Source: a virus
IMG/VR virus record: IMGVR_UViG_3300018080_000149
Location: 1-64,000 of that record
Direction: 5' to 3' (one strand)
Length of the DNA stretch: 64,000 bases
Shown: piece by piece, positions 1,052 to 57,638 of the stretch
Position numbering within the stretch: position 1 is the stretch's first letter
Layout of the letters: each line of letters begins with the position of its first letter
Translations under genes and position numbers: made by a program
The notes under the pieces: generated by a model
Databases searched by the model: none
What the model was told of the DNA's origin: nothing
Seen by the model: only the letters and a program-made list of their open reading frames with translations

Positions 1052-1073
1052 TGCCGTCGTGATCTGACTCAGA

Positions 1074-1568
1074 TCACTTGAGAGCGAGCGTCCAAGCCGA
1101 CGCGCGAACCTCGAAAAGGGTGCTCGCGTCCTCCCACTCGATCTCCTCACCGTCCGCCTGAAGGACGACACCATCCTGAATCAGGAGTGCCACCTTGTAC
1201 GGCTCCAGAGCGGCTTCGAGGTCATCGGGGTCGACGTCGTCACCGAGCTGCTCGGTGACGTAGGCCGCCGGGTCCGTGGTGTGGACCATGCTGGACTCTT
1301 CGTCGTCGCCCTCATAGAAGACGAGCGCGATGATCGAGGACTCCTGCTCCTCTTCTTCGACCTCTTCTTCGACCTCTTCTTCGACCTCTTCCTCCTCCTC
1401 GATCTCCTCGATCTCCTCGGGCTCCAGCTGCTTCGCCTTCGCCTTGGCCTTCTGGTTCTTCTTTTGGGCCTTCTGGTTCTGAGCCTTGGCCTTCGCCTTG
1501 CCCTTCCCCTTCGGAGCGTTCTTGGAGTTGTTGGTCTTGGAGTTGTTGGTCTTCTTTCCCTTTGCCAT
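1074..1568 (-). CDS. hypothetical protein with Lys-rich N-terminus and poly-Glu tract
   Basis: 164 aa, GGAGG SD; MAKGKK...KAKAKAK followed by EEIEEIEEEEEVEEEV. Confidence 0.8.
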   Translation of the reverse strand: MAKGKKTNNSKTNNSKNAPKGKGKAKAKAQNQKAQKKNQKAKAKAKQLEPEEIEEIEEEEEVEEEVEEEVEEEEQESSIIALVFYEGDDEESSMVHTTDPAAYVTEQLGDDVDPDDLEAALEPYKVALLIQDGVVLQADGEEIEWEDASTLFEVRASAWTLALK

Positions 1569-1611
1569 GCTCTCCTCCTATGGAGATAGTATCCGCCCAC
1601 CACGGGCGGCC

Positions 1612-1663
1612 CGGACCTCGTACCTGGAATCGAACCAGGTGAATTGCTGACCATAGCCGAGGT
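1612..1663 (-). ncRNA. tRNA-like element E4 (52 nt)
   Basis: ACCTCG/CGAGGT stem, GCT-ATGGTC-AGC mini D-arm with GG, CCTGG-TTCGATT-CCAGG T-arm, CCG end, then a GC-rich hairpin. Confidence 0.75.
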
Positions 1664-1669
1664 TTGTTT

Positions 1670-1930
1670 CTACGTGTGAACTGACCACTCCCCGTTGCAA
1701 TAGTGGAGTAGCCCGTTCATAAAGAACGACCCATCTGATCTCGTCCACAGGACACTGAAACCCCACTGCGAGAAGTCATAACCTAGTGAAACGGTCAGGT
1801 TCTCGCCGTAGTGGTGAAGGTACGACAGTGCCCCCTCCAACGCTTCGAGTAGTACGTCGCCGCCAGTAGCGGCTTCGATAGCCTTCAACGTAGTGTGGAA
1901 GTGCTCCACATTGTCAATCTTGAGAGTCAT
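1670..1930 (-). CDS. small conserved protein, DUF4120-like
   Basis: Start reassigned to ATG 1930 (GAAAGGAGAG SD); YDFSQWGF...MNGLLHY...WSVHT C-terminus recalls the DUF4120 family. Confidence 0.6.
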   Translation of the reverse strand: MTLKIDNVEHFHTTLKAIEAATGGDVLLEALEGALSYLHHYGENLTVSLGYDFSQWGFSVLWTRSDGSFFMNGLLHYCNGEWSVHT

Positions 1931-1945
1931 TAGCTCTCCTTTCAC

Positions 1946-2015
1946 TGGAGCCCCTACCAGGAGTCGAACCTGGCTAGACTTGCGTCTATGTGATCTCCAT
2001 TCGATCACTAGAGGC
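1946..2015 (-). ncRNA. tRNA-like element E5 (70 nt cloverleaf, GNRA tetraloop instead of anticodon loop)
   Basis: GCCTCTA/TAGGGGC acceptor; GTGATC-GAATGGA-GATCAC D-like arm; TAGAC-GCAA-GTCTA; CCAGG-TTCGACT-CCTGG; T-CCA; then GTGAAAGGAGAG. Confidence 0.85.
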
Positions 2016-2022
2016 TAGTTCG

Positions 2023-3268: not shown

Positions 3269-3332
3269 TGGTGGAATCACTGGGAATTGAACCCAATTTG
3301 ATCGGACTCCGATCAACCTACCAAGGAATTCC
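3269..3332 (-). ncRNA. tRNA-like element E8 (64 nt)
   Basis: GGAATT/GATTCC acceptor, CCT-TGGT-AGG mini D-arm, TTGATCGG-AGT-CCGATCAA hairpin, TTGGG-TTCAATT-CCCAG T-arm, A-CCA. Confidence 0.75.
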
Positions 3333-3923: not shown

Positions 3924-4610
3924 TCACGGGTCCACGGATGACTCACCCTCCAGTGGAACGCGTATTCCCCTGCGGATCAAGAGACGCTTTTCTGACTCGT
4001 CCAGGGTTCGCCACCAGACGTCAACAGGAACCTGTTTTGAGTGCCCGTTTGACACCTTTTCAGCGGCGTTCTTCACAACCCTTGTGGTCTGTTTGATTTC
4101 GGTTGTCTGGGATCTCTGAGCACTAAGTATCGAGTCCAGACGTTTAGAGACCTTAGCCTGTTCGACTGTAAGGTGAGCCACATTGGCTTCCATTGTTGCC
4201 TTGGAAGAGAACCACCCGAAGGCGGAACCAATCACGACAACAGCGACACCTAGTACCCAGAAGATGCGTTTCGAGGCCGCGGTTTTGATCTCGTTCAGAT
4301 CAGTCCCATGTCCAGCTATCTCGCTCTCTGCGGTATTTACCTTGAGAGAAAGCATACCTTGGCCGTCACGTAACTCAGTTACCGCCTCGGTATTTGGGCA
4401 ATCTTTCACGGAATGTGGTGTAAGATTTCTGGTATGTTCTTCGAGTTTTTTGACGCGCCCCTTGGTGCCACGAAGATCTGTCTTTAGAGATATAACGTCG
4501 TCCCTTGTGTGTCGGGTGTCGTCTTTTATCGCACGAAGATCATCCTTGACCTCACCGAGAAACGCTCGTATATTAGCGGCAGTTGGTGGCGGTGTCGGTC
4601 TATCAGTCAT
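3924..4610 (-). CDS. coiled-coil protein with one transmembrane helix
   Basis: IFWVLGVAVVVIGSAFGWF hydrophobic segment; heptad-rich flanks. Confidence 0.65.
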   Translation of the reverse strand: MTDRPTPPPTAANIRAFLGEVKDDLRAIKDDTRHTRDDVISLKTDLRGTKGRVKKLEEHTRNLTPHSVKDCPNTEAVTELRDGQGMLSLKVNTAESEIAGHGTDLNEIKTAASKRIFWVLGVAVVVIGSAFGWFSSKATMEANVAHLTVEQAKVSKRLDSILSAQRSQTTEIKQTTRVVKNAAEKVSNGHSKQVPVDVWWRTLDESEKRLLIRRGIRVPLEGESSVDP

Positions 4611-6717: not shown

Positions 6718-6732
6718 GTGATCTTACTCCGA

Positions 6733-8193
6733 TCAGGCTAGCTGGGTGTAGTATTGCGGATTGACTTCGAGGTCCGTCGCGTTTACGGCTGTACCTACGA
6801 ACACGATATGGTCCCCGGAAAGGAACGAACTCGTGCCTTGAACCAATCCCCCGTTGCGTCCGACGAAGAACCGCTGACCAACCGTCGCGCCGACAAGAAC
6901 ACCTGCCGCGACACCACGACGAACAACCTTACCAGACGCTCCAGATCCAATACCACCGGACTCTACAACGACGCCGAAGCAGTCGACACGAGCGCCAACA
7001 GAACCTTGACACTCGCGGATACGATCATTTGTAGTGCCCCACTCAATGGGATCACCAAGAGCGAGAGCTTCCTGGGCGGTGAGAGTCTCTTCGAGACGAA
7101 TGGCCGTTGTCGAGCCAAGCACTTCCAGCTCGTTAGAGCCGTTGATCTGGATCGTTGAATCGTCAGTACGAACATGGAGACCGGCTGTGAGTACGTCTAC
7201 CGCACCAGCCGGATCGGGGAGAACCGCCAGCTTACCAGCGTCCGCTCCCGAACCGAACTGAAGACCAGGCTCAATCACTGCGCCTGTTGCTAGGTCAACA
7301 TCAAGGTCGCCAGGGCCAGCGTTCGCGACGAGACCGTCACCAGCGTTGACTGCGACACCATTGGCGTCGACAGTGATACCGTTGTACCCTTTGACGCCGA
7401 CACCATTGGCCGTTACCTCGATACCGTTATGCGGATCAACAGCGAGCTTCCCAAGGTCGGCTCCCGTACCAAACTGGAGACCGGGCTGTACCACAGCGCC
7501 AGTTGCAAGATCAACACTGACCTCCCTGTCGCCAGAGATAGCGATACCATCGCCACCAGTGTAAAGACCCTCGCCACCGTACTGCGACCACTCGATAGCT
7601 GTTGTATCAACAGTAATAGGATCAGGAGTGATAACAACCCAAGCCGTCTCAGCCAGCGTGTTACCTTCCGTAACCCAGCAGTGAGCACCGGAGGTAACTT
7701 CAGCGTCAGCGTCAAAGTCCGTAGCACGCGTCAGACGCCAGGGAGTACCGGCGTCACCGACAGTCGTAACCGTGTAGATTCCGTGGTCGACGTCTGCCCC
7801 ACCAGCGTTTTCGCTCTTGACCAGAATCCGATCACCGACGGACGGTGTTACGCCGTCGACCGAGAGAGCACCATTCGCGTCGGCTTCGAGGTATGCACCA
7901 ACGCCAGAGCCGGTCTTTGTGTAAGCGTCCAAGGCCGCCGCTGTCGCGAAGCGACAAGACGCCTTCGGGTCGAGGCCACTAGCGATGGCATCGACATACG
8001 CCTTTGACGCGGCTTCGTCAGCGTTTGTTGGTGTTGTGGGGAGACCGTTGATCGTGCCACCACCAGTAAGGTCGATGTCACCACCACCAGTGACTTCCAG
8101 TCCCCCGATCTGGATGTCGTCTGATGTTGCCATCTCCTTAGGACCAGGAGGATCTCCAGCGATGTTGTAGTAAAGCGGCTTTACAGTAGCCAT
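6733..8193 (-). CDS. fibre / head-decoration-like structural protein
   Basis: AASKAYVD, DRILVK...GIY...LTRATDFD motifs; Gly-rich GDGI/GNGI repeats; internal duplication VDLATGAV.PGLQFG.GAD.GKLAV. Confidence 0.7.
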   Translation of the reverse strand: MATVKPLYYNIAGDPPGPKEMATSDDIQIGGLEVTGGGDIDLTGGGTINGLPTTPTNADEAASKAYVDAIASGLDPKASCRFATAAALDAYTKTGSGVGAYLEADANGALSVDGVTPSVGDRILVKSENAGGADVDHGIYTVTTVGDAGTPWRLTRATDFDADAEVTSGAHCWVTEGNTLAETAWVVITPDPITVDTTAIEWSQYGGEGLYTGGDGIAISGDREVSVDLATGAVVQPGLQFGTGADLGKLAVDPHNGIEVTANGVGVKGYNGITVDANGVAVNAGDGLVANAGPGDLDVDLATGAVIEPGLQFGSGADAGKLAVLPDPAGAVDVLTAGLHVRTDDSTIQINGSNELEVLGSTTAIRLEETLTAQEALALGDPIEWGTTNDRIRECQGSVGARVDCFGVVVESGGIGSGASGKVVRRGVAAGVLVGATVGQRFFVGRNGGLVQGTSSFLSGDHIVFVGTAVNATDLEVNPQYYTQLA

Positions 8194-9882: not shown

Positions 9883-9908
9883 CTTATCCTCCTGTGATCG
9901 GACTCAGA

Positions 9909-11510
9909 TCACGTCCCATAGACGTGAGAAGCTTCATTGATGAGAGTACGTACTCGGCAAATCTCTGGGCTACAGATATTACCAAGGTTACCCTGACCCG
10001 CCACATTTGTGTCCGTGACACGGAAAACGACCCAATACGCGTATGCGTCGTTATCGACAAATATCATTGGGTCACCGCTATAGTTGTCGTGAAACAGTAA
10101 ATCGTGGCGTGTACTGGCTGCGAGCGAGAAGAATTGTTTGGTTCCGCTAGGGGCTGAGAATCCTCCACCGCCCACAGCTTGACGCATTACAGCGCCTTCA
10201 ATTCCCAAGTCAGCCGCGTTCACCCAGTTACCTGTCATGAAGAATTGAACGTAGACTTGATAGATACCGCACTTGTCCAGGACCTTTATAGGTACGCAGA
10301 CATAGGGGCTGTCAAGAGCCCCAGACGTGTTCCACCAAATGTCCAGAGTTTGCTGACCCTGTACGCCAGAAAAGACTCGTGTGTTCCAGCCCCACTCATT
10401 CACGTTCACCGAGGGTGCAGAACCGACAGTCCACGGGTCTTGTGGCCCATCAGGCCGGAAGTCGCAAGCTGGTACAGAGTACGGCTTTATGATAACGCTT
10501 GGGCTGGATGGACCCAACCCTGACGTTCCGTAAAGGTGGCCTTTACCGTTGGATGGGTCAGCGTCTTCAGCGTAAACACCCCTTGCCATGAAGTCACGAA
10601 GGGCCGCAAGGGAAGACATTGTGTTCACACCGACGGTCACAACATCGTTGATCTGCCGAATGAAAACGTCTGACAAGCCACCAGTTGGATCTCCGAAACG
10701 TACACCACCACCAGCAGAGTTCGAGGAGTCGCCCTCCTCGAAACAGCCGTCTGTCAAAGGGTCATCGTTCCATTCACGCGACAACGCGCCAGCGCCAAAC
10801 CTCATACGCTTCGCTATTTGTCGCAGACCAGCCAACCATTCAAACACGCCAATGGGTGTAACATCTGAGTATGGCGGAACAGCCGCCCACGACAGAATGT
10901 CCCGCATAGGGTACTGTTCGTAAACATACAAAAGTGTTATGTCATCGGTCCCATTGGTCTGAAATACAGCTACGTCAACCCAACCAGCGTCACGCAAAGT
11001 AGCGTCAGAATCAGCCGAGGTTGTACTGTCCTGGACCTCGTAATCGTCAATTGTCCTGGTATCAACTGTTTGCGTAGTCTTACCAGAACCAGTTGTGTAG
11101 AACTTCCTCGGCTCAGATGTATCGTTAGTTGCGACGCGTCGAATTTGCACGTACCTGTCTACGCTACCAGGTGCCGCTACTACGGTTAGATCGCGATATG
11201 TAGGCGAGTTCGGCCCCCCTACACGCTCGCCATCTTTATCGTAAACGGCAGCTTCAAATGTAACACCTCCGACGCTAAACTCTCGATTCACTCTGAGCGT
11301 CAGAGATGGAGCCCCCTGTTTTATAGGCAGATACGGATAGGCGATCAAGGGAGCTTTACCGCCCCAGTCACCGGATGATAGGCCGTAGTGGTTTCTCGCC
11401 CCCATGACCAGACGCGCCATGTGGGCAAAGCCATTCTTTATGAATGACTGAAGTCGCGTCATGTCGAGGAGGTCGAAGCGCTGTTGTGCAGTAAGTTTTA
11501 CTTCGTCCAT
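9909..11510 (-). CDS. baseplate/tail-associated protein
   Basis: 533 aa; position downstream of baseplate wedge genes. Confidence 0.55.
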   Translation of the reverse strand: MDEVKLTAQQRFDLLDMTRLQSFIKNGFAHMARLVMGARNHYGLSSGDWGGKAPLIAYPYLPIKQGAPSLTLRVNREFSVGGVTFEAAVYDKDGERVGGPNSPTYRDLTVVAAPGSVDRYVQIRRVATNDTSEPRKFYTTGSGKTTQTVDTRTIDDYEVQDSTTSADSDATLRDAGWVDVAVFQTNGTDDITLLYVYEQYPMRDILSWAAVPPYSDVTPIGVFEWLAGLRQIAKRMRFGAGALSREWNDDPLTDGCFEEGDSSNSAGGGVRFGDPTGGLSDVFIRQINDVVTVGVNTMSSLAALRDFMARGVYAEDADPSNGKGHLYGTSGLGPSSPSVIIKPYSVPACDFRPDGPQDPWTVGSAPSVNVNEWGWNTRVFSGVQGQQTLDIWWNTSGALDSPYVCVPIKVLDKCGIYQVYVQFFMTGNWVNAADLGIEGAVMRQAVGGGGFSAPSGTKQFFSLAASTRHDLLFHDNYSGDPMIFVDNDAYAYWVVFRVTDTNVAGQGNLGNICSPEICRVRTLINEASHVYGT

Positions 11511-11516
11511 CTCTCC

Positions 11517-13226
11517 TCACAAGAGCGCGGTGTCGAGTAACAGAACCCCACACCCCGCCGGTAATGCCTTATCGAGACCCGGAGGGCGCTGTATGTAGCT
11601 CCGGTATGTTGTGTCGACGTTCACCCCATCGTACAATGGTGGCGGTATCTCTGGTGCTGGTGTACCTAGAAGCGACACTATTGGACCACTCAGTACAATC
11701 GGATACGGCCAACCAACAGGGTCTTCCGTGAAGTCTGCCAGAAAGTAGTCACCGTAAAAGCCATCATCTACAGCGTCGTCCCTGTAGTAGGTCTCCTCTA
11801 GGATATCTATGGGCATACCATCAGGCCACGAAATGTGGTCTATCCAGGTCTCCCATGGCTCAACAGGAGGGCTCGTGATCCAACTAAGATCACCGATCTG
11901 GTCATCGTTGCTGAACCAAACTGTAACACAGCCTGGCCACCTTGGGTCTTCACCAACGACGATGTGTACCCAAAGCTGCGGGTATATGTATCTGATAGCC
12001 TCATATACAGTACCCGTAACGCCCCTCATGTTGACCGACGTATGGAAGACCATTCTTCGCAAGTTTGTGTCGTTCAGCGTGGGGTTATCGCTTCGTGGCG
12101 ATCCGTGGTCTTGGGCGACATATTCGAGTGGCCGACCACTAGCGCCAAACGCTAGCATATTGATCTCCGCTTTCGATACAAAAGACGTCGCCCAAACGTC
12201 CTCCACAATATCGCCCTCATCGTGACTTGAGAGTTGCGACATTAGCTGAGCCCTACCGTAGATAACCGCCTGACGTGTGTCGATATCAAGCTCATCGTAT
12301 GCGATAATCTCGTTACCGATACGAATCAGGCTCTTTCTAGGTAAGTAGATAGCCAGAATAGCTGCACCTTTTGGGGGAGCCTCAACCATCATTATCTGTC
12401 GGTCATGTCCCTTGTTTGGGGCATACCAACGAACGCTGTCTACGATACCCTCATCAGCAGTCTCCGCTCTACCAGAGGCTACGACTAGGACACACTCGAA
12501 AGTGTGAAACGGAAGTGTCGCCCGGAACAGTCTGTTTGAACCATCACAGGCACCCCACAACTTATCTACGTGGTAGGGAACCAGTCCGTCTTTGAATGTT
12601 AGTGGGTCGCCGATACCAGGCACAGTAACAGGCGGCGACGAAAAGCCAGCCGGGCTAAAGGTCGTGACCGTCATGGGTTCGTCTGGCCCAGGTAAGGCCG
12701 AGCCGAGATTGCTGATCAGACCACCGGAGAGAAGCTCATTGACCTTACCGATCATGTGAGCTGTGCTGTAGTTCAATGGTTGAATCTCGGTAAACGCGAC
12801 GCGGCCAAGTCTACCAAGCTCGTTGAACGTTTCCCCTGTACGCACACCATCCTGTGACCAGTAAGTGATCGTTTTCAGATCATCAATGACCGTAGAAATG
12901 GTAGCGCTGCCCGTTAGATTGTTACCATCAAAGTCAAGAATGTTGGCCAGTCCCGAGGCTGACATACCGGCCAACAAAGGACCGGATGCTATGACCTCAC
13001 TTGTCACTACGTAGACGCTCTCTGGGGAACCGCCATTCTCTGACACAGGGTCTAGCGGGTTCCATTCTTGCGCCTGAGCGTATGGTAGAAACACATACGC
13101 TACTGTATAGCCAGGGACAGCGTAACTTGCTAAGTCTCGAAGAGTTGTGTCGTTCCTCAATGAATTGTCAAACGTCAGCTTGACACACGCTGGAGAGACG
13201 TGCTCTGTTGAGATGAGTTGTGTCAT
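11517..13226 (-). CDS. baseplate wedge-associated protein
   Basis: 569 aa; follows the baseplate J-like gene. Confidence 0.55.
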   Translation of the reverse strand: MTQLISTEHVSPACVKLTFDNSLRNDTTLRDLASYAVPGYTVAYVFLPYAQAQEWNPLDPVSENGGSPESVYVVTSEVIASGPLLAGMSASGLANILDFDGNNLTGSATISTVIDDLKTITYWSQDGVRTGETFNELGRLGRVAFTEIQPLNYSTAHMIGKVNELLSGGLISNLGSALPGPDEPMTVTTFSPAGFSSPPVTVPGIGDPLTFKDGLVPYHVDKLWGACDGSNRLFRATLPFHTFECVLVVASGRAETADEGIVDSVRWYAPNKGHDRQIMMVEAPPKGAAILAIYLPRKSLIRIGNEIIAYDELDIDTRQAVIYGRAQLMSQLSSHDEGDIVEDVWATSFVSKAEINMLAFGASGRPLEYVAQDHGSPRSDNPTLNDTNLRRMVFHTSVNMRGVTGTVYEAIRYIYPQLWVHIVVGEDPRWPGCVTVWFSNDDQIGDLSWITSPPVEPWETWIDHISWPDGMPIDILEETYYRDDAVDDGFYGDYFLADFTEDPVGWPYPIVLSGPIVSLLGTPAPEIPPPLYDGVNVDTTYRSYIQRPPGLDKALPAGCGVLLLDTALL

Positions 13227-13233: not shown

Positions 13234-14673
13234 CTACAGCGCGATTGTTGACACATCAGCTCGAACAACGCCGAACTTGTTAGACGGGGGCACATCATCC
13301 TGGCCACCGTCGAGGAGAAGGTCTGACACGTAATCCAAACCAGGCGTCTTATGAACGATGCCACCAATAACGTCGTACCTAGCTGGATCGCCAATGGCGA
13401 GACCATTCATATACGACGCTGTATTGGCGATTGCCACAGCGCGACCAAAGTTACTGTCCCAACCCTCCTTGAACACAAGAGTGCCGCTAACACTAGGTTT
13501 CACAACAGACGACGGGGGCCTGATCCGAATCGGATACCCAATGGGCCGCCAGCCCTTTATTGCCTCACTCTTGTAAACGCCATTGACCCATCGCGCCGCT
13601 TCCTTGACCAGCCCAGTGTAGAAATTGAACTGACACCGAATGCGCTCATTGTTAGTGACCAGAATGGGAGACGCGAGGGCGATCATGCCTGTATCGCTGT
13701 TCACCCAGTAGTCTACGCCCTCTGTTTGAGGAATCCACGCCGCGCCATTGTATCGCTCCAATTGGGCATTTATACCGTCGTCCCATGGATCAAACGGATA
13801 GTCTGGTACACGAATGTAGATGTGGTAGCTTGTCGCGTCGAACTGCCACCAGTTACCGCCACCATAGCCGTAGGTGGTGGAGTCGATAGCTCCGATTAGT
13901 GTTGAGTCCCCAGACCCATCGTCAATGATTGCGTACACGAGTCCAGTGAAGAGGGGGGAAGGCTCGTCAAACGCCTCAAACAGGCGAGCGGAAGTAACCT
14001 TCTGCCCAGAGGAAAGCTCTACGTTGGTGAGGAGAGACTCGATACCCGCCCACGTACATTCCCCATGGCCTCGCCTTGCAGCTCTAGCTCGGGTCCGTAG
14101 TGGTGGGTCATCCTCCCTTGTGTATCCGCCTCCGGCGTCCGTTGTAGCCTCAAAGTACGCAACTCCAGTAATGGGGTTCCTCAGTGAGAGCTGGCCACCA
14201 GAGGGGATGTTGTTACCCTTTGAACCTGTCTCTGTGCAAGTTAGAAACACCAAGTTTGACTCGGTGTCAGCGGAGGGGATAACAGCCGCCGCCTCTGATC
14301 TGAATGCGATCTCAGACTGTGTAGCTGTAGCCGGTCTAAGAGCTACTGTCATTGGTGGGATTGGAATAGCTGTGCCTATAGCGCCTGAACGCTTGAATCG
14401 GCCAGCGATTCGCGCGGCTTGAGCCGGTAAGCGAAGCGTGTTGTTTTCCAAAACCCTGCGATCGAGTAGCTGTCCACGGAGCCCCTCTAGGCTACCGCCT
14501 TTTATGAGCCGGAGGGATTCCACATTGGCGTTAGCTCCGAACAGCGCCATCACCTGGACGAGTGCCCTATGGAACGTTCTCTCCGTGAACGGGTACTCGA
14601 CGCCTGTCACTGACCGAACAATCGCCACCCCGAGGGCAAACAGATCTTCGTGAGTGTAGGCTTGTACCTTCAT
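13234..14673 (-). CDS. baseplate J/gp47-like wedge protein
   Basis: LDRR...RLPAQAA, CTETGSKGN, GGYTREDDPPLRTR, YMNGLAIGD, PGLDYV motifs. Confidence 0.85.
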   Translation of the reverse strand: MKVQAYTHEDLFALGVAIVRSVTGVEYPFTERTFHRALVQVMALFGANANVESLRLIKGGSLEGLRGQLLDRRVLENNTLRLPAQAARIAGRFKRSGAIGTAIPIPPMTVALRPATATQSEIAFRSEAAAVIPSADTESNLVFLTCTETGSKGNNIPSGGQLSLRNPITGVAYFEATTDAGGGYTREDDPPLRTRARAARRGHGECTWAGIESLLTNVELSSGQKVTSARLFEAFDEPSPLFTGLVYAIIDDGSGDSTLIGAIDSTTYGYGGGNWWQFDATSYHIYIRVPDYPFDPWDDGINAQLERYNGAAWIPQTEGVDYWVNSDTGMIALASPILVTNNERIRCQFNFYTGLVKEAARWVNGVYKSEAIKGWRPIGYPIRIRPPSSVVKPSVSGTLVFKEGWDSNFGRAVAIANTASYMNGLAIGDPARYDVIGGIVHKTPGLDYVSDLLLDGGQDDVPPSNKFGVVRADVSTIAL

Positions 14674-21835: not shown

Positions 21836-22310
21836 TAGAGCCTCTCATCCGTTCTTCGATTGCACTAAGAAGGTCAACCTCGTCCGGGAACTCGTCATCG
21901 TCCGGGAAAGCCTCTACAGCTTTTTGCTTGATCTTATCCCGATCACTAGACTGTCCATCGGCCCACTCTTCTTCCATCGCATCGAAAACAGGGCTACCAG
22001 TCTTAGTTATTTCTACCCCCTTGTGTACGACCTTTCGCACAGGTCTACCGTCTACACCTAGCTCAAGTCGCTCATCTTCGATAGCGTCAGCTATCATCTC
22101 AACAAGCATATCCTCGAACGTGTAGTCAGTAAGCCTTGGGTCTGTTCTGGGTAGGTTGTACTTCTTCATGAAGTAACGCAACACATGATCGTTCTTTAGG
22201 TGATCCTGGGCCGCGTCAAACAGATCGTCTGGGATCGTTTTGTCAGTGCGTGGGGCTCCGAGAACCCCGCGTGTCTCAGTCGCCGTCTTCCTTCTGTGAA
22301 GACTCTTCAT
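21828..22310 (-). CDS. tail assembly chaperone, downstream (T-like) ORF
   Basis: Overlaps the upstream chaperone in the +1 frame; KKYNLPRTDPRL motif; directly before the tape measure. Confidence 0.7.
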   Translation of the reverse strand: MKSLHRRKTATETRGVLGAPRTDKTIPDDLFDAAQDHLKNDHVLRYFMKKYNLPRTDPRLTDYTFEDMLVEMIADAIEDERLELGVDGRPVRKVVHKGVEITKTGSPVFDAMEEEWADGQSSDRDKIKQKAVEAFPDDDEFPDEVDLLSAIEERMRGSNG

Positions 22311-40932: not shown

Positions 40933-41023
40933 CCCCGTTACATCCTTTCCTATCCCTGAGGAACCCCCTCACGAAAGAAATATCATATTTTTGCGATATT
41001 TCTTGTGGGTGATCTGACGAAGA

Positions 41024-43238: not shown

Positions 43239-43514
43239 TTACCTCAACATGTCCGTGAGTAGGAAGGACACGCCACGCAACGACATGACGTCCATCCCAG
43301 TGACGTCCGCGATGATCTGAGCGAGATCAACTTCCTTGGTTGGGTCCACTTTGCGAACTTTCGCCTTGACAGCGTCCTTCTGTTCAGCGGTCAAGACGAT
43401 CTTTGAGACGTCGATGTTTTCAGAGATGCTAGCTCCATCGCTAGAGTCAGCGATCTCCACCTTTCGCCCGCTACGCTCGATATCATCGAGCTTCTTACCG
43501 ACATCATCACTCAT
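43239..43514 (-). CDS. hypothetical protein
   Basis: 91-aa ORF with GGAG SD. Confidence 0.6.
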   Translation of the reverse strand: MSDDVGKKLDDIERSGRKVEIADSSDGASISENIDVSKIVLTAEQKDAVKAKVRKVDPTKEVDLAQIIADVTGMDVMSLRGVSFLLTDMLR

Positions 43515-48299: not shown

Positions 48300-50129
48300 C
48301 TAAAAGTCGAACAGATCCATGGCATCTACCACATCGTCAAACGTTGGTAGCCCCAAGGAGCTGTGTGGATCTGTATCAGATCGAATGGAGCCTGGCGGGT
48401 CAATCTCTCGCACACTTACGTTGTGTACCCTCAACCACCTTAGCCCTATCATAGCGTAGTTGAACGCGTGCAGGAAGTGGTCTGGACCCGTACTCTCCGC
48501 CACCTCGACCATCGACCCATCCCTCAGTTCTTCAACCGTGATAGCCACGTTTCTGAAGTGCATGTCGATAACGTCGAGGTGTTTCTCAAGGTGTTGTAAC
48601 TTTGGTATGGTGAGTTGCTTGTTGTACAGTTCGTTGAGCCGCTCCTTGATCGAAGGAGCCCTACCTATGGCACACGATGGGTACGCCGCGTTGTTACTCG
48701 GGTTCTGAGGCCCGAAGAGAACTTCTGACGTAGCCCCAGCCGTTCCTGCCGGTGGGTACTTACAGATCCAGGTCTGACACGGAGCGCGTTGGTAGAGTTT
48801 AGGATTCCTGTCTTGCCCATAGCCGTAGTCAGCGACCACACAGTCAGCCTTCCACCGCTGGGCCAACTCCACCATTGCGTTGACGGTGTCCTCTGGGTCC
48901 GTGGTGTCAAGGAACATAAACGGTTCGAGTAGTATGGGATTCTGATGCTCTGGTGTGATACCGAGTACAAAGGCCCAGTTCGATTTACCCCAGTCAATAC
49001 CGACTACGACATTAGTTGCCTTGAACTGACGGTCGAAGTCTGATCTTGATGAGATCATGATCTCAGGGTGAACCAACTGGTACACGAAGTTTTCTGCTAG
49101 CTGAGCGGAGTCTCCCATGTACCCCTCGGCTAGTACGTAGTTGTACCACTTACCGATAGGCTTGTACTCACGAAGCTTCCGCATAATGTCATCGGCGGTG
49201 ATCCAGACACAGTCGAGCTGACTCGCCTTGTAGCCTCGAATCTCGCCTTTAGCGTTGTGCGATACCCATTCGTTCTTGGCCCCCCAACGGTCAAGCTCCT
49301 TCCCACACTTTAGACACGCGATGATGAAAGCGCCATCAGGAACACTTGCTGTTTCATCATGGGCCTCTAGCCTTTGAAGGAGCGTAGAGGAGCCCTTGAC
49401 CTGTTGTATGTTGGAGCTTGTCAAGAACTGCCAATGGCCACACTTGTTACACTTGTACATCCATCTGTGTTGGTCACTGTTGACATATTGCCCATCGACG
49501 CCAACCTTTGGGAACGTTGGCGTAGAGAAGATACGAAGGTGTTTCATCTTTGATGACGACAGGCACTCTCGGAAGGCCGCGATGACCCCCGGTTTCATCC
49601 TGTCAAACTCATCAAGGAACACTCTATCGGCTGCGGTTGATTCACCGAGGTCTTCGTTCCAGCTACCAGTAATGAGAATGTCAGACTCACCGCCACCATT
49701 CAGCGGAGTGATCTGCTTGTTCATCACTGACCCCCAACCGTCCAACAACCCGAGGACCGGATCAATGAACGCATCGGGGTGGCCTGGCTTACCTACTGGA
49801 GAGATACGAGTCCGCGCGATCTCTTGGGCCTTATCCCACTTAGGCATCGTGTAGATTGTACGACACCGACCGAGGGTAGCCATGTAGATCATGTTGCTGA
49901 TGAAGATCTCAGTGAACCCCATCTGTCGGCCCTTGGTAATAACCACTGTCCGGGACATGTCGTCGACCGGAGCGATCTGCCATGGCCTATGAGAGTGGGG
50001 GTCTTTCTTCGAGTAGAATTGCATAGGGCGTCGCTTGAGGTTACGGTACTTCGTCAACCACATCGACGGTACTAGCCAGTCCCCTATGCTTTTCTTATAC
50101 GCGGCTCGGTTCCGCTTCTTTTTCGCCAC
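48300..50129 (-). CDS. terL: terminase large subunit (gpA-like, Zn-ribbon insertions)
   Basis: KGRQMGFTE, FLDEFD, STPT, CNKC/CLKC, GIDWG, PDHFLHA. Confidence 0.93.
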   Translation of the reverse strand: MAKKKRNRAAYKKSIGDWLVPSMWLTKYRNLKRRPMQFYSKKDPHSHRPWQIAPVDDMSRTVVITKGRQMGFTEIFISNMIYMATLGRCRTIYTMPKWDKAQEIARTRISPVGKPGHPDAFIDPVLGLLDGWGSVMNKQITPLNGGGESDILITGSWNEDLGESTAADRVFLDEFDRMKPGVIAAFRECLSSSKMKHLRIFSTPTFPKVGVDGQYVNSDQHRWMYKCNKCGHWQFLTSSNIQQVKGSSTLLQRLEAHDETASVPDGAFIIACLKCGKELDRWGAKNEWVSHNAKGEIRGYKASQLDCVWITADDIMRKLREYKPIGKWYNYVLAEGYMGDSAQLAENFVYQLVHPEIMISSRSDFDRQFKATNVVVGIDWGKSNWAFVLGITPEHQNPILLEPFMFLDTTDPEDTVNAMVELAQRWKADCVVADYGYGQDRNPKLYQRAPCQTWICKYPPAGTAGATSEVLFGPQNPSNNAAYPSCAIGRAPSIKERLNELYNKQLTIPKLQHLEKHLDVIDMHFRNVAITVEELRDGSMVEVAESTGPDHFLHAFNYAMIGLRWLRVHNVSVREIDPPGSIRSDTDPHSSLGLPTFDDVVDAMDLFDF

Positions 50130-50139
50130 TTGATCTGTT

Positions 50140-50967
50140 TCAGATCAGGCCAGCTTTGCGAGCTAGCTCACTGTGAATGTCAGCTACCGTCATGAACGGG
50201 AAGCGCCAGGCGAAGCCGTAGCCCTCCTTCCCAGGCTTGACCTTGAGAAGCTGCCCAAGCGCCTTGTACGTCTTAGACCCGTTCTTCGCCAACGGGAGAC
50301 CACCATGGCCACCGATTGGTGAACCCATGCCGTCCATGATCTTGATGTCTCTGTTGTAGAACGTATGGCCAGGCGAGTAGTGGGTCACAACCCTGTTGAA
50401 CGTACACTGGCGAGCGCACAGCGCGTCACGTAGGAGATCACCGAAACTGTCATCACCGGAGCCGGGAGCCGAGTTTGGGTCATCGTCAGGATCGTCCCCC
50501 GTCGAGCAGGCGTAGAGAATCACAACCGGAGCGGGGTGACGACCGATAGCCGCCACGAACCGCTCCCAGTGACCCCTGTCGGTGCTCGTGAACCGTCGAC
50601 CTGGGGTAGGACTCCTGATACCAAACTGGATACCGGAGATGTAGCCGTGACAGAAGAACACGTAGACTTGCGGATACAGATAGTCCCCTGTCTCCGGCCA
50701 GACTGTCCTGGCGGCTTCCATCTTTGACAAAAGCTGTCGGGCTTGAATGTGCTTGGAGTTCTCATTGTCGATGTAGTGGACTACCTTTTCGCGGTCGAGG
50801 CCGTAGTAGTCACAGAACATCTTTGCTCCTGGGTGAAACGCTCCCGTGGCGTCACGCTTACCCTGAGTGTTGAACTCTGGAGCGAAGACGATAACCTCTT
50901 CGTTTGAAAGCAATGGTTGTTCCACTCCGCTAGCGATCTTATCATTGTAAGGGTTAGGTTCCAACAT
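50140..50967 (-). CDS. hypothetical protein (possible His/Cys hydrolase fold)
   Basis: FFCHG and ILYACSTG motifs. Confidence 0.55.
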   Translation of the reverse strand: MLEPNPYNDKIASGVEQPLLSNEEVIVFAPEFNTQGKRDATGAFHPGAKMFCDYYGLDREKVVHYIDNENSKHIQARQLLSKMEAARTVWPETGDYLYPQVYVFFCHGYISGIQFGIRSPTPGRRFTSTDRGHWERFVAAIGRHPAPVVILYACSTGDDPDDDPNSAPGSGDDSFGDLLRDALCARQCTFNRVVTHYSPGHTFYNRDIKIMDGMGSPIGGHGGLPLAKNGSKTYKALGQLLKVKPGKEGYGFAWRFPFMTVADIHSELARKAGLI

Positions 50968-51715: not shown

Positions 51716-52360
51716 TTACCCGACGTTCCTCTCAAGCCAGCGAATAGCCACTTGCGATGTAGCGTTGATGACACCACCAGCCTCCACAGTCTTGTACGAC
51801 ATGCGAAGAAACTTCTTGACCACAGCGATGTCATCGGAGGAACACCCGTAGTTCTTCAGGGCTTCGGCGACACTCTGTGCCTGGTATATAGTGAACTCAC
51901 CCTCAGTGAGCCACCACGAAATCTCCAGGTTACAGCGGAACGCTTCCGCCTCAAAGATTGCTCTCTGGGCTCTATCCGCCAGGTAACGGATAACGAATGA
52001 GATAGGCTCGTGTCGATACTGTAGAACGTGTTGGTGCTCGTGGACACAGACCTTTACCTGGCTCTCAAGCGAGTGTGTCGAGGCGTCCCCGATCTCGAAC
52101 GGAATGTAGATGCGGTCACCGAGCGTCGTGGTGTACCGCTCCATGAATGTTCGTTTGTCAATAACATCAAGCTTGTCAAGGAACAACGCTACAAGTTGCA
52201 TCTCAGCGCCACCGCCGAGATTGGCCAACAAGTCGACAAAGTTCCCACCATCACCGATCTTACTAAGATCAATGTCACCCTTGCGAATGAGAGTAGTCCT
52301 GTAGTGGTCCATCATGTAATCCCAGAACCGACGGACATCTCTGCTTGTAAGGTCCTTCAT
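51716..52360 (-). CDS. HExxH zinc metallopeptidase-like protein
   Basis: VHEHQHVLQY...FEAEAF. Confidence 0.7.
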   Translation of the reverse strand: MKDLTSRDVRRFWDYMMDHYRTTLIRKGDIDLSKIGDGGNFVDLLANLGGGAEMQLVALFLDKLDVIDKRTFMERYTTTLGDRIYIPFEIGDASTHSLESQVKVCVHEHQHVLQYRHEPISFVIRYLADRAQRAIFEAEAFRCNLEISWWLTEGEFTIYQAQSVAEALKNYGCSSDDIAVVKKFLRMSYKTVEAGGVINATSQVAIRWLERNVG

Positions 52361-53560: not shown

Positions 53561-54244
53561 CTACAGATCCTCTACGAGTACAGGACTGATCTGACTCAGA
53601 TCATCCTTGACTTTGTTGAATAGTGTTTGCATCTCTGGGGCGGCTTTCTTCGATGTACGGAGCCGTATCATGTGACGCCACTGTCGGAAGTTAGCCGTGA
53701 CTACTATGTCAGCCTTGAGACAGTGCGGTAGTAGGTAGCGGGCTGACTCACGGGCTACACCCTGATCGCGTTCGTGTTGGTAGTCTCGCACAGCCTCAGT
53801 AGCCACCTGTACCCAACGAGAAGGCTGAACCCCACTGTCAGACGTCAGCACAGTACCAGACTCATCGTAGCTCAACGTGTAGAGACCAACGTCACCGCTA
53901 AACATATGCGGTGGCTTGACAAATACAACCGCGTCCTTCTCTTCGATGTAGCGTGTAGAGGACTGAGTGAAGGCACACAGCCTGTGTCTAACGATCTCGT
54001 GAGTAGCGATTCGTGAACACTGGAACAGGAACGATACAGCGCTATGTTCCAGCACTGACTCATGAGGGTTCGGCCTGAACCCGAGGAGTTTCTTCAGGAG
54101 TTCCTCAGCCTCGGGCAGTAGGTAGACATTACCCACGCGCCCTCGCGAAATACCGGCGGCGTAAGCGCAGCGTATAAACTGGCTCACACACTCGTCCATT
54201 GGCGTCAACGCAGTAACGCGAGGATCTATGACTTGGATCTTCAT
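53561..54244 (-). CDS. thyX: flavin-dependent thymidylate synthase
   Basis: HESVLEH, RHRLCAFTQSSTRY (RHRx7S), ARYLLP, NFRQWRH. Confidence 0.95.
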   Translation of the reverse strand: MKIQVIDPRVTALTPMDECVSQFIRCAYAAGISRGRVGNVYLLPEAEELLKKLLGFRPNPHESVLEHSAVSFLFQCSRIATHEIVRHRLCAFTQSSTRYIEEKDAVVFVKPPHMFSGDVGLYTLSYDESGTVLTSDSGVQPSRWVQVATEAVRDYQHERDQGVARESARYLLPHCLKADIVVTANFRQWRHMIRLRTSKKAAPEMQTLFNKVKDDLSQISPVLVEDL

Positions 54245-54388: not shown

Positions 54389-54991
54389 CTAGTCTATTGG
54401 CCAAGACTCGTCACAGTCTGGCCGGATCATACAGTAGAAGCGTCTGGCTTGCTTAGCTGAGAAGTCTAGCCTGGCGGCCTCCTCAGAGACACAACGACCA
54501 TACTTGTAGCTCGCAACCTTTCTCCACAGTGACCCCGGACACTCACGGAACATGTGAGACAACATGTTGACCCCTGTTCTGAATGAGCACTGAGGCGTCA
54601 TGTTGTACAGGTTCTTATGTTGACACCCGGAGGGCTGGAACTGTCGCCAGCCAGAGCTAGGGTGGATCTGCATAGCTCCAAGCTCGCCTCTCTTACCGCG
54701 TAGCCTACCGAGCCATACACTGTTCCAGAATGCGCTCTCCCGCCGGATGATAGCTGTTAGTACGTATGGGTAGTCCAGGCCGAACTCAGCGTCAGCGTCA
54801 ATGATACGCTGTGCCCACTCCAGGCGGCTGTCAGGCGACAGCTTTGAGTAACGGCCCAACTCCTCGACAGCCTCACTGATCTGATACAGATCGGCAAAGT
54901 CATCGGGTGACGTCCCGTCTGTGACGTCTGTCGGCTGAGCCAACACTGTCAGTGGGACAATGATTGCTAGTAGCGTAAGCGTCCACCTCAT
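54389..54991 (-). CDS. lytic transglycosylase (SLT-like) with signal peptide
   Basis: AIIRRESAF, GAMQI, SYKYG; N-terminal hydrophobic leader ending VLA. Confidence 0.8.
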   Translation of the reverse strand: MRWTLTLLAIIVPLTVLAQPTDVTDGTSPDDFADLYQISEAVEELGRYSKLSPDSRLEWAQRIIDADAEFGLDYPYVLTAIIRRESAFWNSVWLGRLRGKRGELGAMQIHPSSGWRQFQPSGCQHKNLYNMTPQCSFRTGVNMLSHMFRECPGSLWRKVASYKYGRCVSEEAARLDFSAKQARRFYCMIRPDCDESWPID

Positions 54992-55212
54992 AGGTCACTC
55001 CGTGTTGATTGGCTTGTGTAGGACGCCGTGGTCATCACAGAACGAGATCACAGCATCCTGATCAGTAAAGCTAATCTTCTCACCGCTGGGTAATGTCATC
55101 GAGCCAGGCATCTTCGCCGAGCGAGTTCCCGGCTTACCACAGTAGATACATTTCGCCCCAGGAGGGGCGTATGGGATGCCGAGATGGATCTCAACCATAG
55201 GCTGGGCTTCTG

Positions 55213-55695
55213 TCATCGCTTCTCCCCAGCGACACGGATCGTAATCGTGTCGCCCTTTGTTCTATACTCTGCTGTTGTGTGTCCTATGACAGAGCCGTGA
55301 CGATACATGGAGTCGCCCTTGTCCAGTACCTCACAGTGTACTGTGACCCACATGTTCTCTTTGCGGTCAATACGGTACTCCTCAAAGATACACAGGAACC
55401 CCTTTTTGAAGTGGTCCATGATGTATTCACAGAGATCTCCCACTGGATTTGCTTGGGGCCACTCCTCGTCTGGAATGGCTATCGCCACCCGGACGGTTGG
55501 GACGGTGTGTACTTTGACCGAGACGTCTGTGGGTGCGATGTCCATCGCGACACACACCGATTCTATGGGCGGTTCCTCCGCCCATTGGAAAGCGAGTGGA
55601 ACCGGCCCTGATTGCTTTTTAGCGTTCCAACCCCTACGGGTCAGGCGGCTAGCGATCAGGGCCGGTATATCCACACCTAAGCCGTTACTCTTCAT
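55213..55695 (-). CDS. hypothetical protein
   Basis: 160-aa ORF coupled to neighbours. Confidence 0.55.
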   Translation of the reverse strand: MKSNGLGVDIPALIASRLTRRGWNAKKQSGPVPLAFQWAEEPPIESVCVAMDIAPTDVSVKVHTVPTVRVAIAIPDEEWPQANPVGDLCEYIMDHFKKGFLCIFEEYRIDRKENMWVTVHCEVLDKGDSMYRHGSVIGHTTAEYRTKGDTITIRVAGEKR

Positions 55696-56824
55696 TGCCT
55701 GAAACGATCTTATTCAGATCACGGAGGCGACTCAGTACCTCGATCCCCATGACCTGTGTGTCAGATCTTGCCATTGTGTTCTCAACCCACTCGATGAGGT
55801 TTGTCAGTTTGTAACGCGCCCTCGGTACGTCAATCACGTCTGCGTGATCCAGTTGATCCACCTTCGCCATGAGTTCTCGAATCTGTGCGTTTTTGTCCGC
55901 GAGCTTGACCTTGAGATCGTCAAAGAGCTTCTGCCAGTCAGCGCTACCTGACGTATCGCGCTCCAACATCACCTGATTTGACACAGGAGACTGGATACTC
56001 ACAGGGAGTCTCGTGTTTGCCTCGTATATACGCTCTCTAAGGAACTGAATGTACTCGACAACCGTTCGACAGGTATCCTCGACACCGGACATGTCCTCTT
56101 CGATGAGCCCTGTGTGAGCACAGATCATCTGACGAAACTGGACCATTGACTCGACCCAGCCGTCCAGTTTCTCTTGTGTCTCTGCGAGCCGTCGTTCCGC
56201 GTCTATCTTAGCCGCTGTAATCGTGTCGACACCGTCAGCCATACGCTGGTATGTATCTATAATCTCCTCGGGAGACATGCCGGTCTTGGAGATACCCATC
56301 GGACCCGGAAGCTCCAAGGTCTCGTACTGACGGAGGCGTTCTTCCTTGGCCAGCCATTGCTCTTTGTCTTTGAGCCTGGGCTCAGCGCGTTCCGCTTCGA
56401 GCCGTTTACGGAGTTCCAAGTTACGCTCGTCAGATTGCCTAAGTTTCGCCTCAAGATTACCAATCTTGTCGAGAAGCTTTGGAACCTTATCGGCCTCAAC
56501 AATCAATGCGTCGACCTTATCCTCTATGTCCCTTCGTATATGGTCTAGCGGGACATGAGAGGCTGCGCGGGAAGTATACCTCGTTGTAGAGTTACCCAGC
56601 TTCACAGCGAGGCTAATCAACTGTCTACGAAGTGAACGTGTCTCAACAATCGGTGCGTCGGCCTTATCCTCCATGGCTTTCCATTGAACCCACATAGGAC
56701 AAACCTTGGTACGCGCCCTAGCAATACCGTAGTAGTGAGCCCTGGTGTTCAAACACTTCGACTTACCAGAGTCATCCACTACGTCCGCCTCGTAGAACTT
56801 GCAAGTTCTACAGAACCTATCCAT
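55685..56824 (-). CDS. coiled-coil protein with N-terminal Cys cluster
   Basis: 379 aa; CRTC...C...C; GGAGG SD. Confidence 0.65.
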   Translation of the reverse strand: MDRFCRTCKFYEADVVDDSGKSKCLNTRAHYYGIARARTKVCPMWVQWKAMEDKADAPIVETRSLRRQLISLAVKLGNSTTRYTSRAASHVPLDHIRRDIEDKVDALIVEADKVPKLLDKIGNLEAKLRQSDERNLELRKRLEAERAEPRLKDKEQWLAKEERLRQYETLELPGPMGISKTGMSPEEIIDTYQRMADGVDTITAAKIDAERRLAETQEKLDGWVESMVQFRQMICAHTGLIEEDMSGVEDTCRTVVEYIQFLRERIYEANTRLPVSIQSPVSNQVMLERDTSGSADWQKLFDDLKVKLADKNAQIRELMAKVDQLDHADVIDVPRARYKLTNLIEWVENTMARSDTQVMGIEVLSRLRDLNKIVSGNEE

Positions 56825-57065
56825 TACGACCCTCCTAACTACACGCGTCTAGTGTTTTGCCCGTTCACCATACGCGCGAGTGATATTCCAACCTGTCACA
56901 CGGTAACCCTTCACCATGTTTACAAGTTTGGCCAACAGCTCAAGAGCCTCGGCCACCTCAACTAGTTTGCTTTGATCTTGTACTTCAACAGCTAGTTCTA
57001 TCGGATCACGATGACCCTCGGTATAGACCAGTAACACTATCCTGTCTGCCATGATCTGACTCAGA

Positions 57066-57524
57066 TCACTTCGGAGGAATGAGCCCAGCCTGCTGAAGTT
57101 GGGCCATCTGTTCCGGCGTCACGCCGACTACGTTGTTGCCATCCATTGGTGGCCCATCATAGTCGTCCATGGGATTGTGGTTGAGATCGTTATCCACTTT
57201 CCTGTACTCCAGGAATGATGCGTACTCTCTGTGGATCATCTCATAGGCCGCCACCCCCACGTTCTCCGGTGTCACCTTGTACGCTGTGGTGTAACCCTGC
57301 ACCACGTAGCGTTTGATCGGACCTCGGTTGTATCCCCCGATACCAACCATGATCGCCTCTCTCATCACCTGTCCATTAGGCAACGGGGCGGTTCGGACCA
57401 TGATCTGGCCAGCGTCGAGAAGATGGTCGACCTTAGGGGATTCTACGAACTTACCGATGTAAAGCACGTTCATAACCATGATTACCGTAAGTTCTGGCTT
57501 TTTGTCGCCCATTTCAGCCCTCAT
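57066..57524 (-). CDS. hypothetical protein
   Basis: 152-aa ORF. Confidence 0.6.
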   Translation of the reverse strand: MRAEMGDKKPELTVIMVMNVLYIGKFVESPKVDHLLDAGQIMVRTAPLPNGQVMREAIMVGIGGYNRGPIKRYVVQGYTTAYKVTPENVGVAAYEMIHREYASFLEYRKVDNDLNHNPMDDYDGPPMDGNNVVGVTPEQMAQLQQAGLIPPK

Positions 57525-57560
57525 TTGTCTTGATAGCGTGTAGCTACCGTTAGGTGAACT

Positions 57561-57638
57561 GCTTGATCGGATAACGATACTTTCTGTGTAGGTGTAATCA
57601 TGACACCGTAACTTCCAGTGATCGTTATCCGATCAAGC
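57561..57638. other. intergenic 18-bp perfect inverted repeat with internal hairpin
   Basis: GCTTGATCGGATAACGAT / ATCGTTATCCGATCAAGC; inner GGTGT/ACACC. Confidence 0.8.

Follow-up and report, generated by a model that had tools for sequence, protein, structure and literature searches.

The stretch of DNA analyzed here, referred to as the window, covers positions 1 to 64,000 of the IMG/VR virus record IMGVR_UViG_3300018080_000149 and represents the first 64 kb of a single record of 87,400 bp (G000 when the whole genome is meant). Our subject is a 17-bp palindrome, TGATC-N7-GATCA, that recurs throughout this DNA both between and within genes. The window has genes for the large terminase, the portal, and the tail sheath, and the virus, which is uncultured, is by this gene content a tailed phage of the myovirus type. 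Gene coordinates come from a simple in-house gene caller and have approximate start codons; across the whole genome, 97 of the 98 genes called lie on the minus strand. Among GenBank phages, a megablast of 20 kb gave no match and no near relative, and the best tblastn matches of the large terminase, a comparison of one gene only, were SPO1-like phages at ~33% identity. Features beyond the window are given in genome coordinates, from which L001 coordinates are obtained by subtracting 64,000 (e.g., genome 73393-74676 = L001:9393-10676).

The window contains 30 exact copies of TGATC-N7-GATCA in comparison with 0.07 expected, a number reached in 0 of 100 shuffles, and the whole 87.4-kb genome contains 41. 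The first-pass annotation of the window had listed 27 exact copies and given a naive expectation of about 0.06 per 64 kb, close to the computed value. All 27 are found where they were reported, and three more had been overlooked (20869, 35962, and 58144). The five one-mismatch copies that it named (15131, 27959, 46518, 52255, and 55705) are real and belong to a total of 15 in the window, versus 2.4 expected. Counts of GATC-Nx-GATC for x = 0-26 showed a sole spike at x = 7, with 39 pairs in the window and 53 in the genome. The 39 sites of the window are the following (window coordinates; no strand is assigned to a site):

1060..1076, exact, full consensus TGATCTGACTCAGATCA; gene junction, with the first TGA on the minus strand being the stop codon of gene 1074-1568
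1991..2007, exact; intergenic, in the early small-gene region
3299..3315, exact; intergenic, within a weak tRNA-like element at 3272-3333
4286..4302, exact; in coding sequence (CDS) 3924-4610, position common to G001
6719..6735, exact; fills a junction, TGA being the stop of 6733-8193 and the spacer providing GGAG 9 nt before the ATG of 6136-6717
9895..9911, exact; junction, TGA being the stop of 9909-11510, followed by the ribosome-binding site of the next gene
11876..11892, exact; in CDS 11517-13226, position common to G001
12866..12882, exact; in CDS 11517-13226
14296..14312, GATC-N7-GATC with one flank mismatch; in CDS
15131..15147, GATC-N7-GATC with one flank mismatch; in CDS
20869..20885, exact (overlooked earlier); in CDS 19385-21835
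21929..21945, exact; in CDS 21828-22310
22776..22792, exact; junction, TGA being the stop of 22790-23236
27113..27129, exact; in CDS 26553-27371
27959..27975, GATC-N7-GATC with one flank mismatch; in CDS
29611..29627, GATC-N7-GATC with one flank mismatch; intergenic
31158..31174, exact; intergenic, 23 nt upstream of the start of gene 29672-31135
32574..32590, exact; in CDS 32239-33135
34687..34703, GATC-N7-GATC with one flank mismatch; in the 1877-aa gene
35962..35978, exact (overlooked earlier); in the 1877-aa gene, position common to G001
36136..36152, exact; in the 1877-aa gene
38050..38066, exact; in the 1877-aa gene
38842..38858, exact; in CDS 38774-39694
40806..40822, exact; in CDS if gene 39715-40932 begins at its first ATG, otherwise intergenic
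41010..41026, exact; junction, TGA being the stop of 41024-41728 (QueC-like gene)
42914..42930, exact; in CDS 42401-43237 (KamA-like radical SAM)
43313..43329, exact; in CDS 43239-43514
43751..43767, exact; in CDS 43524-46487
45092..45108, exact; in CDS 43524-46487
48367..48383, GATC-N7-GATC with both flanks mismatched; in the large terminase gene
49041..49057, exact; in the large terminase gene 48300-50129
50131..50147, exact; fills the junction between gene 50140-50967 and the terminase start
52255..52271, GATC-N7-GATC with one flank mismatch; in CDS 51716-52360, the sole position kept in all three genomes
53587..53603, exact, full consensus; in the ThyX gene 53561-54244, position common to G001
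54877..54893, GATC-N7-GATC with one flank mismatch; in CDS
55705..55721, GATC-N7-GATC with one flank mismatch; in CDS
57052..57068, exact, full consensus; junction, TGA being the stop of 57066-57512 and the ATG of the next gene overlapping the last bases
57619..57635, exact; intergenic
58144..58160, exact (overlooked earlier); overlap of genes 58158-58610 and 57661-58161

A terminase-alignment search of metagenomes and IMG/VR identified relatives of the phage, two of which are complete genomes with terminal repeats. G001 (95,808 bp, terminase 68% identical) carries 46 exact and 64 core copies of the palindrome, and G002 (87,079 bp, terminase 49% identical) carries 38 exact and 77 core copies. 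GATC pairs with a spacer of 7 number 53, 64, and 77 in G000, G001, and G002, respectively, and every other spacer gives 0-9. In the phage and these distant relatives the palindrome thus occurs once per about 1.1-1.6 kb, also within genes. The pairs account for 106 of the 460 GATC sites of the genome, a total to be compared with 335 expected from base composition and 421 after synonymous shuffling, and GATC sites not in pairs are near expectation.

As many copies lie in genes, we shuffled synonymous codons among genes such that every protein sequence and the codon usage were preserved. Copies wholly within CDS numbered 33, 42, and 54 in G000, G001, and G002 but only 3.2, 5.3, and 5.0 after the shuffles (maximum 12; 3.2 ± 1.8 in G000), which rules out a by-product of peptide repeats or codon usage. 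The first-pass annotation had proposed a GATC-Nx-GATC count with a codon-preserving control and had held that its idea would fail if no spike remained at N7; with 33 copies in CDS versus 3.2 after shuffling, the spike therefore stands, and at N7 only.

The bias of the spacer toward TGANTCA, pointed out in the same annotation, is real and extends the palindrome to TGATC-K-G-A-N-T-C-M-GATCA in all three genomes. The motif is thus a 17-bp palindrome of two 8-bp half-sites (TGATCKGA) around one free central base, and its logo is identical whether computed from the coding or the noncoding strand. The one-mismatch variants mostly affect the outermost T/A, symmetrically, giving Y-GATC...GATC-R, and wobble-type changes (11 versus 7) show no coding-strand excess. 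No other 5-bp arms were enriched at spacers 0-12, and no other palindrome families common to the related genomes were found.

About two-thirds of the copies are in genes, in line with the earlier remark that many copies lie inside CDS, and about one-third are at gene junctions: those touching noncoding DNA or a stop codon make up 18 of 53, 21 of 64, and 22 of 77 in the three genomes, in comparison with ~10% expected. This threefold enrichment has a P value of 1e-5 to 1e-7 across the three genomes (1.5e-5 in G000). In at least seven junction copies, the preceding gene terminates at the motif's first TGA as read on the coding strand, and several junction copies span the entire gap to the next ribosome-binding site. 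The copies within genes use one reading frame in 25 of 33 cases, encoding D-x-x-x-I, and no exact copy can occupy the frame in which its TGA would be read as a stop; the motif therefore looks to be placed where its cost to coding is lowest. Four copies fall within a single gene of the head/tail region (window 33116-38770, minus strand), whose 1877-1884-aa protein gave no match in a PHROG search and, in the parts that align, is only 27-34% identical to the corresponding proteins of the relatives.

The symmetric spacer, the strict spacing, the single fixed sequence, and the absence of strand bias fit a dimeric protein recognizing duplex DNA, rather than an RNA hairpin. The opposite view would have the motif act in RNA, as a hairpin with a 5-bp stem and 7-nt loop or a 7-bp stem and 3-nt loop, in processing, stability, or mimicry of a tRNA arm. 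With the genes on one strand, every copy would be transcribed, the third of copies found at junctions overlap stop codons or ribosome-binding sites, and the copy at 3299 occupies the anticodon-arm position of a weak tRNA-like element. On the other hand, a single stem sequence is used, compensatory or alternative stems are not enriched, the loop is self-complementary within a logo that is the same on both strands, G-U-compatible variants are not in excess on the coding strand, and most copies lie in genes, where cleavage would harm. We consider a function in RNA very improbable. A generic RNA hairpin or terminator was rejected on the one fixed stem, the symmetric loop, and the lack of wobble bias.

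The tRNA-like element is one of two minus-strand segments between small early genes (window 998-1052 and 3272-3333) that gave sub-threshold Rfam tRNA-type matches (21-22 bits); ARAGORN found no tRNA at either place. The element at 3272-3333 ends GGTTCAATTCC...CCA, and the palindrome at 3299 forms its arm at the anticodon position.

Comparison of the three genomes showed that individual sites turn over. Of the G000 copies in orthologous genes, 10 of 26 align exactly with a copy in G001, and 1 of 21 does so in G002. The single position kept in all three genomes, at residue 30 of a 214-aa protein (window 51716-52360, minus strand), lies in a protein without a match in a Pfam search. The spacing is nevertheless regular: the coefficient of variation of the gaps is 0.70, 0.59, and 0.52 in G000, G001, and G002, versus 0.97 for random placement (P = 0.004, <5e-5, and <5e-5), and the minimum gap between copies is 174-251 bp, versus a median of 10-22 bp for random placement. 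That sites turn over while their density and evenness persist indicates selection on coverage of the chromosome, through density and even spacing, and not on individual sites.

Outside the three genomes, the palindrome is also present on the fragments G003, L007, and L061, and few or no copies occur on the short contigs of two more distant terminase relatives (L003/L005 and L009). A further terminase homologue, 83% identical, is on a 52.7-kb contig. Among public sequencing runs, a single DNA run, available as assembled contigs and possibly the source sample, was listed as containing the DNA of the phage, and no RNA run was. Scanning IMG/VR with the consensus 17-mer gave chance singles only, except for G001, and the same 17-mer in 185,579 species genomes gave, among the matches listed, scattered singles in unrelated taxa and no genome-wide enrichment. 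Among those matches, the enrichment of the motif thus seems confined to the phage clade. In an unrelated 2.6-Mb bacterial genome, a 657-bp tandem repeat of at least 16 units (L170 / G004:C1:1086406-1096277) carries the exact consensus TGATCTGAGTCAGATCA in each unit; it is apparently a repetitive gene that matches by coincidence and does not point to a host.

Taken together, the exact dyad, the fixed spacing, the lack of alternative stems, the deep conservation with turnover, and the even spacing are best fitted by docking sites for a dimeric DNA-binding protein of the phage, acting as an organizer or regulator. The first-pass annotation had offered several roles, and among these the sites of a dimeric phage protein survive as the best predicted fit. 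Its stoperator-like variant does not, as the motif is symmetric and stoperators are asymmetric and oriented, and neither does a packaging factor, which about 40-77 evenly spread sites make unlikely; a packaging signal was rejected in the same way, the sites being too numerous and too evenly spread. Its suggestion of a methylation signal lost ground, whereas that of a DNA modification is retained in the form of a 7-deazaguanine pathway with DpdA, as described below.

The DNA-related proteins recognizable in all three genomes are a ParB, a 244-aa helix-turn-helix (HTH) protein, and DpdA with its ParB-fold partner. These candidates, and a methyltransferase that has to be weighed with them, are encoded at the following places:

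Genome 73393-74676 (L001:9393-10676), minus strand: ParB, 427 aa, just outside the window
Window 60677..61411, minus strand: Lys-rich HTH protein, 244 aa, the alternative candidate reader
Genome 64401-65246: ParB-fold "DGHHR" protein, 281 aa, with ParB_N and no HTH
Genome 65218-66222: TGT-like DpdA (PHROG queuine tRNA-ribosyltransferase, 7e-13)
Genome 72320-72841: MT-A70 adenine methyltransferase

The 427-aa protein has the Pfam domains ParB_N and HTH_ParB and exceeds the cutoff of TIGR00180 (65.7 versus 58.45). Its CTP-binding box GFRRFEA, ENLRED box, and HTH are kept in all three genomes, and its profile matches Spo0J, ParB, Noc, and KorB structures in PDB over the CTPase and HTH regions (residues 99-288; E = 2e-18 to 8e-6). 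The protein further has a Lys-rich tail and a Lys-rich N-terminal extension of ~90 aa. Motif searches, as opposed to profile searches, found the ParA-type KGGxxK[ST] in no protein of the three genomes, and the ParA-binding motif LG[KR]GL was likewise absent from the ParB of each genome by motif search. Because no ParA was found in this way, the predicted gene content is not that of a ParABS partition system. The three genomes contain no site like parS, NBS, or OB that could be the target of this ParB; the best matches to these consensus sequences have 2-4 mismatches and occur singly.

We assign a probability of roughly 40% to the reading that the array consists of duplex-DNA docking sites whose likeliest reader is this orphan ParB, a candidate that we rank first because of its co-occurrence with the motif and the behavior of its family. 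Recognition of short palindromes at many scattered sites, followed by spreading as CTP-dependent clamps, is the known behavior of the ParB family. An orphan ParB would need a site and the palindrome is the only iterated one available, which makes the palindrome a candidate target. The ParB subfamily is also as narrowly distributed as the motif, which favors it as the candidate: only 9 close homologues were found among 5.8 billion proteins. ParB homologues P0040-P0044 are encoded on short contigs. In IMG/VR, alignments of ParB and the ParB-fold protein recovered no new clade members, the remaining matches being distant ParB-fold homologues (26-45% identical) without the motif, and tblastn of ParB against GenBank phages gave no match. 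If the protein works like ParB at parS, Noc at NBS, and KorB at OB, its dimer would recognize the two 8-bp half-sites TGATCKGA, bind CTP, close into a clamp, and slide onto the DNA on either side. Loading at intervals of 1.1-1.6 kb could then coat the phage chromosome in its entirety, while host DNA, in which the 10 fixed bases would occur by chance about once per megabase, would remain uncoated. The role of such a coat might be to organize or mark the phage DNA or, as with KorB, to silence or regulate transcription.

Several observations weigh against ParB as the reader. Its link with the motif rests on co-occurrence in one small clade, where many genes co-occur, and the relatives poor in the motif are known only as fragments of 5.7-6.4 kb (L003/L005 and L009). 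The 17-bp site with weakly conserved inner positions is unlike any known ParB-family site, parS and NBS being contiguous palindromes of 14-16 bp. The location of the sites does not discriminate, as they are found near the ParB, HTH, and dpdA genes alike. Structure models of ParB and the 244-aa HTH protein, built from three-sequence alignments, had a mean pLDDT of 50.3 and 57.9, respectively, too poor for fold searches. Finally, the genomes encode a second conserved HTH protein as well as the ParB-fold/DpdA pair.

The second HTH protein raises the possibility that the palindromes are operators of another phage protein, either this one or an unrecognized one, acting as a global regulator or roadblock. 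HTH dimers typically bind a 17-bp operator with half-site centers 12 bp apart, as in the palindrome; the threefold enrichment at junctions and the several sites abutting ribosome-binding sites would also suit a regulator. The protein named in the first-pass annotation as a possible binder exists at 60677-61411 and is conserved, with orthologues 39% and 34% identical, so that all three genomes have it, and its match to Pfam HTH_7 is above the cutoff (25.2 versus 23.8 bits). However, its HTH matches are marginal, with the other HTH models below their cutoffs, and resemble those of transposases, resolvases, or small terminases; the start of its putative recognition helix varies between the genomes (R/V/H, T/P/S) when the motif is constant; and its structure model is of low confidence. 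Two-thirds of the sites being in genes and turning over freely is unlike promoter-linked operators, and the even spacing is independent of operon structure. We therefore judged ParB the better candidate and regard the operator explanation as unlikely.

The ParB-fold partner of DpdA leads to a different proposal, in which the palindromes would be recognition or landmark sites of DpdA and this partner, with guanine exchange at or around them. The phage encodes a complete preQ0 pathway (FolE2, QueE, QueD, QueC, a QueC-like protein, and a KamA-like protein), and the DpdA gene overlaps that of the adjoining ParB_N "DGHHR" protein by 29 nt, both being conserved in G000, G001, and G002. In bacteria, DpdA depends on the ParB-fold protein DpdB and makes ~1 modification per 10^3 nt at specific sites, its target site in pUC19 lying within a palindrome (PMC10164549); the palindrome density of ~0.6-0.9 per kb is of the same order. 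With this precedent, and because ParB-fold proteins lacking a DNA-binding domain are reported in phages as activators of enzymes that modify DNA (bioRxiv 10.1101/2025.08.14.668559), the 281-aa protein is probably a cofactor of DpdA, and the palindromes could in principle be the targets of the pair. Against this, characterized phage DpdAs are reported to act on short contexts (such as GA or GGC) with a large share of G modified (PMC7544227, PMC10484667), and not on long palindromes. The partial motif data for bacteria (CxGCxG) are unlike the palindrome, the PADLOC models for DpdA and DpdB matched neither protein, and protection, with only 106 of 460 GATC sites paired, would not explain why a 17-bp target is enriched and regularly spaced. 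Targeting of the modification by the palindromes is thus rather unlikely.

The 7-deazaguanine genes occupy window 41024-43237, 61362-62186, and 63272-63946 and genome 64401-66443 (L001:401-2443). Those for the KamA-like radical SAM protein, QueC, and a divergent QueC-like protein are within the structural region, followed by FolE2, QueE, QueD, the ParB-fold "DGHHR" protein, and DpdA. The pairing of DpdA with a ParB-fold protein and the presence of the KamA and second QueC genes may indicate that an undescribed derivative is made. Elsewhere in the genome, the family A DNA polymerase (genome 76667-79231, L001:12667-15231, minus strand) has an N-terminal domain of the uracil-DNA glycosylase superfamily fused to its exonuclease and polymerase domains.

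As each site contains two GATC sequences 11 bp apart and on the same helical face, the array could also reflect a process of the host: paired, phased Dam sites read by a SeqA-like factor, or biased repair linked to methylation, as proposed for HIP1 (GCGATCGC) of cyanobacteria. HIP1 has a GATC core, is present in coding and noncoding DNA, and occurs in some cyanophages. Like the phage motif, it is a greatly overrepresented palindrome written into CDS; unlike it, HIP1 is a contiguous 8-bp trait of host genomes shared by some cyanophages, whereas the phage word is a bipartite 17 bp that seems confined to a clade. The phage word, being long, bipartite, and seemingly clade-confined, is not HIP1-like in the strict sense. 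That the host can impose strong sequence selection on the clade is suggested by TTAA, which is wholly absent from the three genomes. However, GATC sequences outside the pairs are not enriched, mutational drive predicts neither even spacing nor minimum gaps, and the species genomes lack genome-wide enrichment among the matches listed. Conservation also extends to the flanking T/A and the spacer, and SeqA is not known to need either. The MT-A70 methyltransferase is encoded by G000 and G001, whereas blastp and tblastn did not find it in G002, the genome with the most copies. A methylation signal of the phage itself is therefore unlikely and was rejected, and with the unpaired GATC sequences near expectation the methylation part of the earlier suggestion is weakened. 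A host-level origin of the array appears improbable.

The absence of TTAA is complete, with 0 occurrences in the 87.4-kb genome and in both complete relatives in comparison with 161, 178, and 86 after synonymous-codon shuffles; TGCA is depleted in G000 and G001 and CTAG in G002. A host restriction enzyme cutting TTAA is the likely cause. As TTAA contains no G, 7-deazaguanine modification could not protect it.

Returning to ParB as the candidate reader, the closest mechanistic analogues would be KorB-OB and Noc-NBS. KorB acts through 12 dispersed OB sites on the IncP plasmid RK2 and is a CTP-dependent sliding clamp (PMC11790492). The resemblance lies in a ParB-family protein of a mobile element, with CTPase and HTH, and many dispersed odd-length palindromes over tens of kilobases; OB is 13 bp with a central base, and the loading and sliding of the KorB clamp act at a distance. 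On the other hand, the phage array has 41-77 sites instead of 12, mostly in genes, evenly spaced, turning over, and unrelated in sequence. The phage, with its replication, recombination, and structural modules, is a tailed virus in which no IncC/ParA (by motif search) or KorA-like partner was identified, and in which binding is a prediction.

Noc has ~70 NBS sites on the Bacillus subtilis chromosome. It is, like the phage protein, an orphan ParB paralogue without the ParA-binding motif, and its dispersed palindromes mark a whole chromosome; NCBIfam nucleoid_noc is the second-best match of the phage ParB, though at 62 bits versus a cutoff of 315. NBS differs in being a contiguous 14-bp palindrome at a ~50-fold lower density, and Noc has an N-terminal membrane-targeting helix where the phage protein has the Lys-rich extension of ~90 aa.

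The literature that could be searched has nothing on the palindrome itself. Compared by published description, its nearest parallel is the dyad repeat of Cluster O mycobacteriophages, which have >30 copies of the 17-bp TGTTCGG-N3-CCGAACA, of unknown function, both between and inside genes and without orientation bias, and encode a protein with a ParB-like domain (PMC4351075). The phage clade studied here similarly has 41, 46, and 38 exact copies of a 17-bp dyad with a symmetric logo, in and between genes. The sequence differs, however, as do the arms and spacer (7+3+7 in Cluster O versus 5+7+5, or 8+1+8, here), and the Cluster O hosts are actinobacterial.

A last comparison is with the stoperators of Cluster A mycobacteriophages, 13-bp asymmetric sites whose orientation follows transcription and to which the immunity repressor of these temperate phages binds. 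Both systems have many dispersed copies of a short site, often at gene ends, and stoperators are bound by a phage protein. The phage motif is a perfect palindrome and, because of this symmetry, the array is not a stoperator system; partial domain scans of the phage proteins turned up no integrase or immunity repressor.

If a lytic phage does coat its chromosome with a ParB clamp in this way, the coat may serve as a self-mark that licenses or guides other phage machinery on phage DNA only, for example deazaguanine exchange or shielding from nucleases. We hold this extension of the ParB reading to be doubtful.

Palindromes tiling a whole phage genome have been described once in the searchable literature, in Cluster O in 2015, and were left unexplained. 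The array described here shows selection on its density and regular spacing over a deep divergence, which clearly comes at the expense of coding sequence, and is paired with a concrete, testable candidate reader, an orphan ParB-CTPase. The defined 17-bp site and the protein form a pair amenable to in vitro study without culturing the phage. If ParB is the reader, the virus would coat its whole chromosome with a CTP clamp by means of many loading sites, which would bear on the organization, marking, and protection of phage DNA and on the roles of orphan ParB-fold proteins in phages. Should the coat also be read as a self-mark, this would be a novel biological role for the ParB switch, and the virus would have a novel means of discriminating its own genome from that of the host.

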